Source of the DNA: a virus
Taxonomy: Duplodnaviria; Heunggongvirae; Uroviricota; Caudoviricetes
Virus record (IMG/VR): IMGVR_UViG_2850784384_000005
Strand: one strand, 5' to 3'
DNA: 17,981 nucleotides
The notes below the pieces were generated by a model that made no database searches, had not been told where the DNA came from, and saw only the letters and a program-made list of their open reading frames with translations. A program made the translations under genes and the position numbers. The first letter of the stretch is position 1. Each line of letters starts with the position of its first letter. Shown here piece by piece: positions 7,639-9,010 of the stretch.

Positions 7639-8796
7639 TTAATCGTCGTCTTCCGGCAGTGCCAGAATCTTGATCGCGTTCGAATCCACCACGCCACCGC
7701 CTAAATATTTTTGCGTGAAAATTTTGATGAATCCTGGTTCTGTCAGGTTGTCCGGTCTGGTGCGAACACCTGTTTCGTGATCAACAATGTAGTAACCGCG
7801 TTTGAAGTCACCCAGGGCAATAACGTTATCAGGCATAAACTCCAGATATTCGACCGGAAGGCCCAGCAACGTATCAGGATCACCCGTCTGTAAACGGTCG
7901 CGCCAGATATAATCACCGTTCGCGTTCTTCACCTTCTGAAGTTTTGCCGCCGTCGTGGAGTTAACCACTCAGACCGCGTTTTTGCGGTATTTTTTACGTA
8001 ATGCAAATTTCAGGTCGATCAGCGGGTCCGCAGATGTCCACGCCAGAGATTCGGAAGGTTTAATTACCTGCAACGTACCAAAATCACGCTCTTTGTCGTT
8101 CTTCTCTGCACGGGGTACGGATAAAAAACCTTTTGCTTTTTTGTCACCGTCGCCCACAACCAGATCGCTTTCTTCGGTTTCCGTGAAGGTGTCGCCAATC
8201 TCACCCGTCAGCCATGAAAGGATGTCCACATCGGAAAAATCCACGATTTCCTGTGTGGTGCGCGGGTACGCATAGACCGGATACAGCTTAATGCTCACCT
8301 CGTTAATCTGCGGGGTGCTGGTCTGTTCGCGTGCCTTACCCTCTTCACCGTGGTTAACGGTCGCACCGCCAGCGGAAACAAGCTGCTTAAACTCGTTGCT
8401 GCTGATTTTCTTCACGGTACAGATGCGACGCATGGTGGATTCATCCGCCAGCATTCGCATGATTTCGGTGTTCAGTTCAGGGATAACGGTATAACCACCA
8501 TCAGCGGGAACGCCTGTACTTAATGCGCGGGTTTCACCGGTCAGAATGTAGTTGCGTAGTTCTGCGGGGTCAGTGGTCTGGCTGCTTTTACCTGGCTTGC
8601 TGCGCTCTTCGTCTGCAATGGCTTCAAGGCGGGAAATGTCTTTATCGAGGGATTCAGCTTTAGCGCGTAATTCGTCAAATTTTGTGCCCTCAGCATCGTT
8701 AAGACTGCGGTTTTCTTTTTCAGCGTTCTCCAGCATGTCGCGCATCTGATTTTTAATGGCGGTTTTCTGCTGGCGTAATTCGATTATTCTCTGCAT
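7639..8796 (-). pseudogene. HK97-fold major capsid protein with N-terminal delta/scaffold domain, interrupted by an in-frame TGA at 7969-7971
   Basis: Track ORFs 7969-8844 and 7639-7968 are in the same frame, separated only by TGA. Together they give about 385-400 aa: a coiled-coil delta region followed by the capsid core (GLPVEYLEF...YYIVDHETG...). Confidence 0.8.
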
Positions 8797-8833
8797 AAAA
8801 AAAGTCCTGGGGTTAAGTAAGGAACTCCAGGAC
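8797..8833 (-). terminator. Intrinsic-terminator-like hairpin plus U7 ending a roughly 200-nt leader, directly abutting the capsid ATG
   Basis: Stem GTCCTGG (8804-8810) / CCAGGAC (8827-8833), with U7 on the minus strand from the A-run 8797-8803. The capsid ATG is at 8794-8796. Confidence 0.45.
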
Positions 8834-9010
8834 GCGGCAAACACTCAACCGTTTTTCATAAGGAAATCAGTAATCGCACCGATCGTTTTCCCGCCTGGTA
8901 ATGAATATTGGCGAGCACATTAACAGGCGGGAAAGTGGCCCCAGCGTCCTGGCACCACGGGCGAGAATAATCATGATTCAGTTCGGGTAAAATATGCCGA
9001 TCCGCTCAGT

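Follow-up and report, generated by a model that had tools for sequence, protein, structure and literature searches.

A nonsense codon at Trp276 of an HK97-fold capsid gene in what is very probably a decaying capsid-forming PICI of Shigella flexneri

What becomes of a mobile element when the gene for its major capsid protein is cut in two by a single in-frame TGA? This is the question raised by positions 7639-8844 of the stretch of DNA analysed here, 17,981 nucleotides in all and called the window throughout. The initial annotation, made from the letters of the window, took the TGA for a nonsense mutation that leaves the island unable to make heads, named low-level read-through as the alternative, and saw in the locus an element in decay. 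The reading set out below runs largely along the same lines: the gene is very probably a W276* capsid pseudogene, and the window part of a decaying capsid-forming PICI (cf-PICI) of the CP-933C/EcCIEDL933 type, integrated between phoQ and roxA in Shigella flexneri.

The capsid gene lies on the minus strand. Translation of 7639-8844 on that strand gives a single frame with one internal stop, ...LRKKYRKNAV*VVNSTTAAKLQKVK..., also seen as a break between KKYRKNAV and VVNSTTAAKL. The stop is a TGA at 7971-7969 (minus strand; "tca" on the plus strand), and in the ORF list the open reading frames 7969-8844 and 7639-7968 (both minus) share one frame and abut, which confirms the initial description of two ORFs parted by this codon alone. 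When the stop is read as tryptophan, the product gives an unbroken match to PF05065 (Phage_capsid) of 206.5 bits, against a cut-off of 24.2, with residues 100-378 aligned to profile positions 1-278 of 280. Because this match is continuous, the two ORFs are halves of one capsid domain, and together they are one HK97-fold major capsid gene. The HK97 fold already proposed for the product is borne out by its identity of about 98% to the solved capsid protein of EcCIEDL933 (PDB 9GYI) and to other capsid proteins of E. coli cf-PICIs. The start codon is the ATG at 8796 and not the GTG at 8844, as the annotation of RefSeq homologues and the 385-residue chain of 9GYI indicate. The read-through product had been described as of normal length, about 400 residues: the normal length stands, since relatives measure 380-410 residues, and the figure becomes 385. 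The TGA is thus codon 276 of 385, with the natural stop at 7639-7641, and an ORF interrupted in this way, in a family whose members run to 380-410 residues, identifies a pseudogene of PF05065.

The N-terminal part of the protein likewise has the features of the family. Residues 92-98, STGVPAD, fit the cleavage motif SxGxxAD, and the neighbouring prohead protease gene is intact, in keeping with the delta domain claimed at the outset; cleavage of this region in an intact protein would be predicted. Both the motif and proteolytic maturation have been described for the EcCIEDL933 capsid (10.1101/2025.02.11.637232). The parts of the gene are as follows.

7639-8796, minus: major capsid pseudogene of 385 codons, HK97 fold, cf-PICI type (PF05065 match and identity to 9GYI)
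7969-7971, minus: opal nonsense codon TGA at codon 276, ancestrally TGG (Trp) by comparison with relatives
7972-8796, minus: translated N-terminal fragment, 275 residues, spanning the delta region, the N-arm, the E-loop and some of the P and A domains
8524-8796, minus: delta (scaffolding-like) region, residues about 1-91, ahead of STGVPAD (boundary putative)
7639-7968, minus: untranslated C-terminal remnant, residues 277-385, a separate 109-residue ORF whose GTG abuts the TGA

Which codon stood here before? Alignment with homologues, among the candidates TGG, CGA and GGA, points to TGG. Three intact E. coli islands (14EC001, RM8385 and RM6927) carry TGG at codon 276, and over the 61 bases centred on the stop RM8385 differs from the window at the stop base alone. 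The TGG version of this 61-mer has an exact match in 330 of 355 complete E. coli genomes; the TGA version of the window has none among 349-355 complete E. coli genomes, and a TAG version likewise finds no exact match among the complete E. coli genomes. At the protein level, 9GYI (385 residues) has tryptophan at position 276, and Trp276 is invariant in the 120 best cluster representatives of a search of 5.8 billion proteins (120/120), whose identities span 66-98% and whose sources are Escherichia, Citrobacter, Salmonella, Morganella, Proteus, Xenorhabdus and Photorhabdus. All 120 are 380-410 residues long, and none ends naturally at this site ahead of a separate downstream gene. One G>A transition at the third base of Trp276 thus turned TGG into TGA; on the plus strand it is seen as C>T at window position 7969.

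The same allele is found far beyond this one record. At least 1000 contigs, the longest of 4.63 Mb, carry the exact 275-residue truncated product (1821 index blocks), and every organism name attached to this product is Shigella flexneri; for the downstream 109-residue fragment, too, the count is at least 1000 contigs. The site reads TGAGTG in each of six independent S. flexneri assemblies (L004-L009), of which three are complete chromosomes, and these assemblies differ from the window by at most 20 substitutions over 15 kb; the PhoQ, portal and TerL sequences of the window are themselves S. flexneri/Shigella proteins. The TGA is no read artefact: it is an inherited allele, fixed in the S. flexneri sampled.

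Two further observations concern the records of this family. The first counts against the pseudogene reading: one Logan contig of 5.7 kb has the exact read-through capsid protein (P0061), with Trp276 together with the derived Thr304. It may be a true revertant, or the gene may have been called under genetic code 4. C-terminal capsid fragments of 109-113 residues (P0064, P0212, P0222 and P0227) recur in E. coli and more distant relatives, P0064 on 17 E. coli contigs, and begin at or just past the codon that follows Trp276. Recurrence of the same stop in E. coli was considered for such fragments and rejected: the loci of P0063 (L010 and L011) keep TGG and owe their split to different indels, of which one falls in an A-run 25 nt upstream, and other C-terminal fragments start at a methionine two codons past the tryptophan. 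Neither the fragment clusters nor the 120 representatives support a capsid family that ends naturally at codon 276.

The surroundings of the gene very probably identify the element as a cf-PICI. Its gene order runs from int and alpA through small ORFs, a 99-residue DUF4222 gene, a P4-type primase and (ssb, perC) to the capsid gene, then to the S78 protease, portal, head closure, connector, HNH, terS and terL. This order and the insertion site at roxA/phoQ match the islands of E. coli RM8385, RM6927 and CE10. The window has the PICI backbone of integrase, alpA and a primase/replication module in canonical order, with the integrase frameshifted in this lineage, and it has a head and packaging module of its own, syntenic with EcCIEDL933-type islands, in which the capsid and TerS genes are inactivated. 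The ORF list holds no tail or lysis genes, and nothing tail-like between terL and phoQ. From the lesions, one would predict neither induction by a helper nor small T=4 capsids nor transfer on hijacked tails. The intact genes and the chromosomal flank are listed here.

1-1461, plus: phoQ, chromosomal flank of the island
2553-4214, minus: large terminase, intact, 553 residues
4746-5186, minus: HNH endonuclease of the packaging module, intact, 146 residues
5186-5482, minus: head-tail connector protein, intact, 98 residues
5479-5817, minus: head closure protein, intact, 112 residues
5814-7025, minus: portal protein, intact, 403 residues
7027-7599, minus: HK97-family prohead protease (S78), intact, 190 residues
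10503-12251, minus: P4-type primase/replication protein, intact, 582 residues
12248-12547, minus: RgdR-family (DUF4222) regulator gene, intact, 99 residues, RGD at residues 20-22
16441-16629, minus: alpA, helix-turn-helix activator of PICI induction, intact, 62 residues

How would the stop act on the island? With Trp276 changed from TGG to TGA, translation would end after residue 275 and the last 110 residues would be lost, which we take, on the HK97 domain map, to be most of the A domain and the C-terminal strands of the P domain. In EcCIEDL933, whose capsid is a T=4 shell held by non-covalent contacts alone, K290D, E319K and R345D each abolish transfer and D295K lowers it by 2 logs (10.1101/2025.02.11.637232); K290, D295, E319 and R345 all lie beyond codon 276. 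Single-gene mutants of the EcCIEDL933 packaging module also lose transfer altogether, except for that of hypothetical gene 1792, which is severely impaired (10.1101/2022.09.08.507074). Because residues essential for transfer (K290, E319 and R345) lie past the stop, the island should be unable to build heads; published mutagenesis of a 98%-identical protein thus suggests that the 275-residue fragment would not form capsomers. This agrees with the headless island first proposed. Lacking a T=4 head, the island could presumably neither package nor spread itself.

The capsid is one of several damaged genes, and the lesions can be sorted by lineage when the window is set beside the six other S. flexneri loci and intact islands of E. 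coli.

4198-4533, minus: small terminase (P27 family) remnant, by alignment with intact islands
9448-9624, minus: ssb'-'perC fusion remnant of a deletion of about 0.5 kb, SSB residues 1-25 abutting PerC residues about 54-87
12582-13349: IS1, 768 bp, with a 9-bp target duplication, CTTTATATC
14845-16270: IS4, 1426 bp, with a 13-bp target duplication, CTCCATTTCGGGG, splitting a 248-residue ORF
17004-17981, minus: tyrosine integrase, C-terminal fragment of 325 residues, the N-terminal part lying outside the window

The TerS frameshift reported earlier proved to be something else. In its place there is a 97-bp deletion between two 7-bp CCCCGCC repeats (junction 4528-4534), which removes the upstream region with the ribosome-binding site, the start codon and codons 1-7, together with a premature TAA at 4234-4236 (GAA>TAA, Glu107). 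A shared 103-residue record had suggested that CE10 has the same 5' deletion; this was rejected, for the CE10 TerS is the full 118 residues and the shared record comes from another choice of start codon. In the ssb'-'perC remnant the first 25 codons of ssb run directly into the final third of a regulator gene of the perC/pch family. The two insertion sequences noted at the outset are IS1 and IS4. In the integrase, a run of five A has become four at about 17962-17966 (minus strand), leaving fragments of 103 and 325 residues; the ATG of the latter marks the very end of the window. The ssb-perC deletion and the integrase frameshift thus add to the signs of decay first listed.

Three lesions are common to all sampled S. 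flexneri: the capsid TGA, the loss of 97 bp at terS and that of about 0.5 kb at ssb-perC. IS1, the integrase frameshift and a non-synonymous capsid change, A304T, are shared by the window, L006, L007 and L009, while lineages without IS1 keep an intact integrase of 409 residues. The terS GAA>TAA is confined to the window, L007 and L009. IS4 is present in the window and absent from the six other S. flexneri loci sampled, and for this reason it is a recent insertion. The A304T change (Ala304Thr, window 7887, minus strand) lies downstream of the stop and arose in the IS1-bearing sub-lineage; it fits relaxed constraint on the untranslated remainder of the capsid gene. In L004, L007, L008 and L009, single-base indels in runs of G or A join or break up the genes for protease/portal, connector/HNH, primase and integrase; they may reflect either continued decay or mistakes in sequencing homopolymers. 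One single-base indel, at window position 13795, has a distribution at odds with the phylogeny.

The whole may be read as follows. The capsid mutation would have been inherited in all sampled S. flexneri alongside the terS 5' and ssb-perC deletions, and IS1, the integrase frameshift, the terS TAA and IS4 would be later lesions of sub-lineages: the probable decay, neutral in our reading, of an immobilised satellite whose host genome is known to accumulate pseudogenes and insertion sequences. Against decay, the genes for portal, protease, TerL, HNH and connector have stayed whole, which can be read as retention; yet at an identity of about 99.9% among the S. flexneri copies, intact neighbours are also what neutrality would leave.

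Retention nevertheless deserves to be weighed. On this account S. flexneri would have domesticated the cf-PICI remnant, dead in its capsid gene, and kept it for a function of benefit to the host instead of leaving it simply to neutral decay, a proposal that we regard as improbable. The remnant is found in essentially all sampled S. flexneri, and the portal, protease, TerL, HNH and RgdR-family genes, the last with its RGD motif, are intact. RgdR of CP-933C, the homologue of this regulator, controls type III secretion (LEE) and motility in EHEC (PMC3378721). If the remnant were domesticated, an RgdR-family regulator might act on the type III secretion system of the virulence plasmid; alternatively, the truncated capsid and the intact portal, protease and terminase proteins might interfere with HK97-like phages. 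The presence of the remnant in the strains sampled can, however, be had without selection, for copies that differ by about 0.1% or less have had too little time for neutral loss. Individual strains carry further disruptions, some of them perhaps assembly errors, and the capsid fragment is tied to no function. As an explanation of the broken capsid gene itself, retention of the truncated fragment or of the whole remnant for host benefit, through an effect on HK97-like phages or through RgdR, is less probable still than the general proposal. As a separate matter, IS1 lies 34 bp upstream of the ATG of the RgdR-family gene and may alter its expression.

Could the stop instead be leaky? A near-cognate Trp-tRNA would then read the UGA at a low rate, and the island would make a few heads and keep a low mobility. 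UGA is the leakiest stop codon. In E. coli K-12 reporters, Trp-tRNA reads through it at rates near 2% (37 C) and 4% (25 C) (PMC10570021). Insertion of tryptophan would give back the ancestral residue, the base after the capsid TGA is G and not the strongly terminating U (for the +4 context, see PMC5289835), and a small amount of full-length protein is possible. A T=4 head, however, needs about 235 copies of the capsid protein (by our arithmetic, 240 subunits less one penton replaced by the portal; 10.1101/2025.02.11.637232), and the truncated form would be in large excess. No stimulatory structure was found downstream: folding of the 71 nt that begin with the stop is no stronger than chance (z-score 0.30), 116 of 200 shuffled sequences folding at least equally well. 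The other lesions weigh in the same direction. The start region of TerS is missing in every sampled S. flexneri island, and TerS mutants of the prototype do not transfer; the lineage of the window has, besides, a broken integrase and the TerS nonsense codon. Because TerS is disabled in all sampled copies and the integrase is broken in this lineage, read-through could not restore mobility. Leaky termination as the explanation of the locus is accordingly held to be quite unlikely, a little less so than retention of the fragment or remnant as its explanation and a little more so than domestication in the broad sense.

The remaining two accounts can be dismissed briefly. Programmed recoding, with the TGA as a selenocysteine codon or a regulated read-through site, has in its favour that the codon is TGA and in frame, and nothing else; against the TGG of all 120 representatives, the absence of the TGA 61-mer from the E. 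coli genomes, 30 flanking nucleotides on each side identical to those of TGG relatives, so that no new signal has evolved, the chance-level folding of the downstream 71 nt, and a search of Rfam families including SECIS without a relevant match near the site up to an E-value of 10, it is effectively refuted and its probability negligible. An error of sequencing or assembly in this one record, which a single-base difference from all E. coli relatives and the one Logan contig with the Trp version might suggest, is just as negligible, given the same TGA in six independent assemblies, complete chromosomes included, and both fragments on at least 1000 contigs each.

A W276* pseudogene in a decaying cf-PICI thus stays by far the most probable reading, and it should be seen in proportion. 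The gene is an ordinary pseudogene, already annotated; its island belongs, as a defective member, to a satellite family described before, and in that sense the case is already known. What it allows is a correct annotation: two ORFs called "bacteriophage protein" in S. flexneri genomes are halves of one cf-PICI capsid pseudogene, and the island is a defective cf-PICI, with little importance beyond that. It does offer a dated, species-wide example of a capsid-forming satellite immobilised and then eroded after capture, and a warning that satellite censuses by gene presence would overcount functional cf-PICIs in Shigella.

How does the island compare with known systems? EcCIEDL933 (CP-933C, O-island 51 or Sp7 of E. 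coli O157:H7) is the prototype capsid-forming PICI, and S. flexneri has already been named among the species with similar elements (10.1101/2022.09.08.507074). The two are alike in gene order, in a capsid protein about 98% identical (9GYI) and in having no tail or lysis genes. Unlike the prototype, the window has W276*, a TerS without its 5' end and with a TAA, a deleted ssb-perC region, IS1 and IS4, and a frameshifted integrase; EcCIEDL933 is mobile with the tails of helper HK106, whereas the lesions imply that the copy in the window would not be. With the HK97 gp5 family (PF05065) the capsid shares the single-domain match, the delta region, the cleavage motif and the adjacent S78 protease, and differs from it in its interrupted reading frame. 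The cf-PICI capsid overlays that of HK97 with an RMSD of about 1 Å, but forms T=4 shells and lacks the K169-N356 cross-link (10.1101/2025.02.11.637232). Genome decay in Shigella provides a further parallel, with a nonsense mutation, a deletion at microhomology, a homopolymer frameshift and insertions of IS1 and IS4 brought together in one dispensable mobile element. Shigella genomes are rich in insertion sequences and pseudogenes, and from that pattern the island differs in nothing of substance: it is a typical example.
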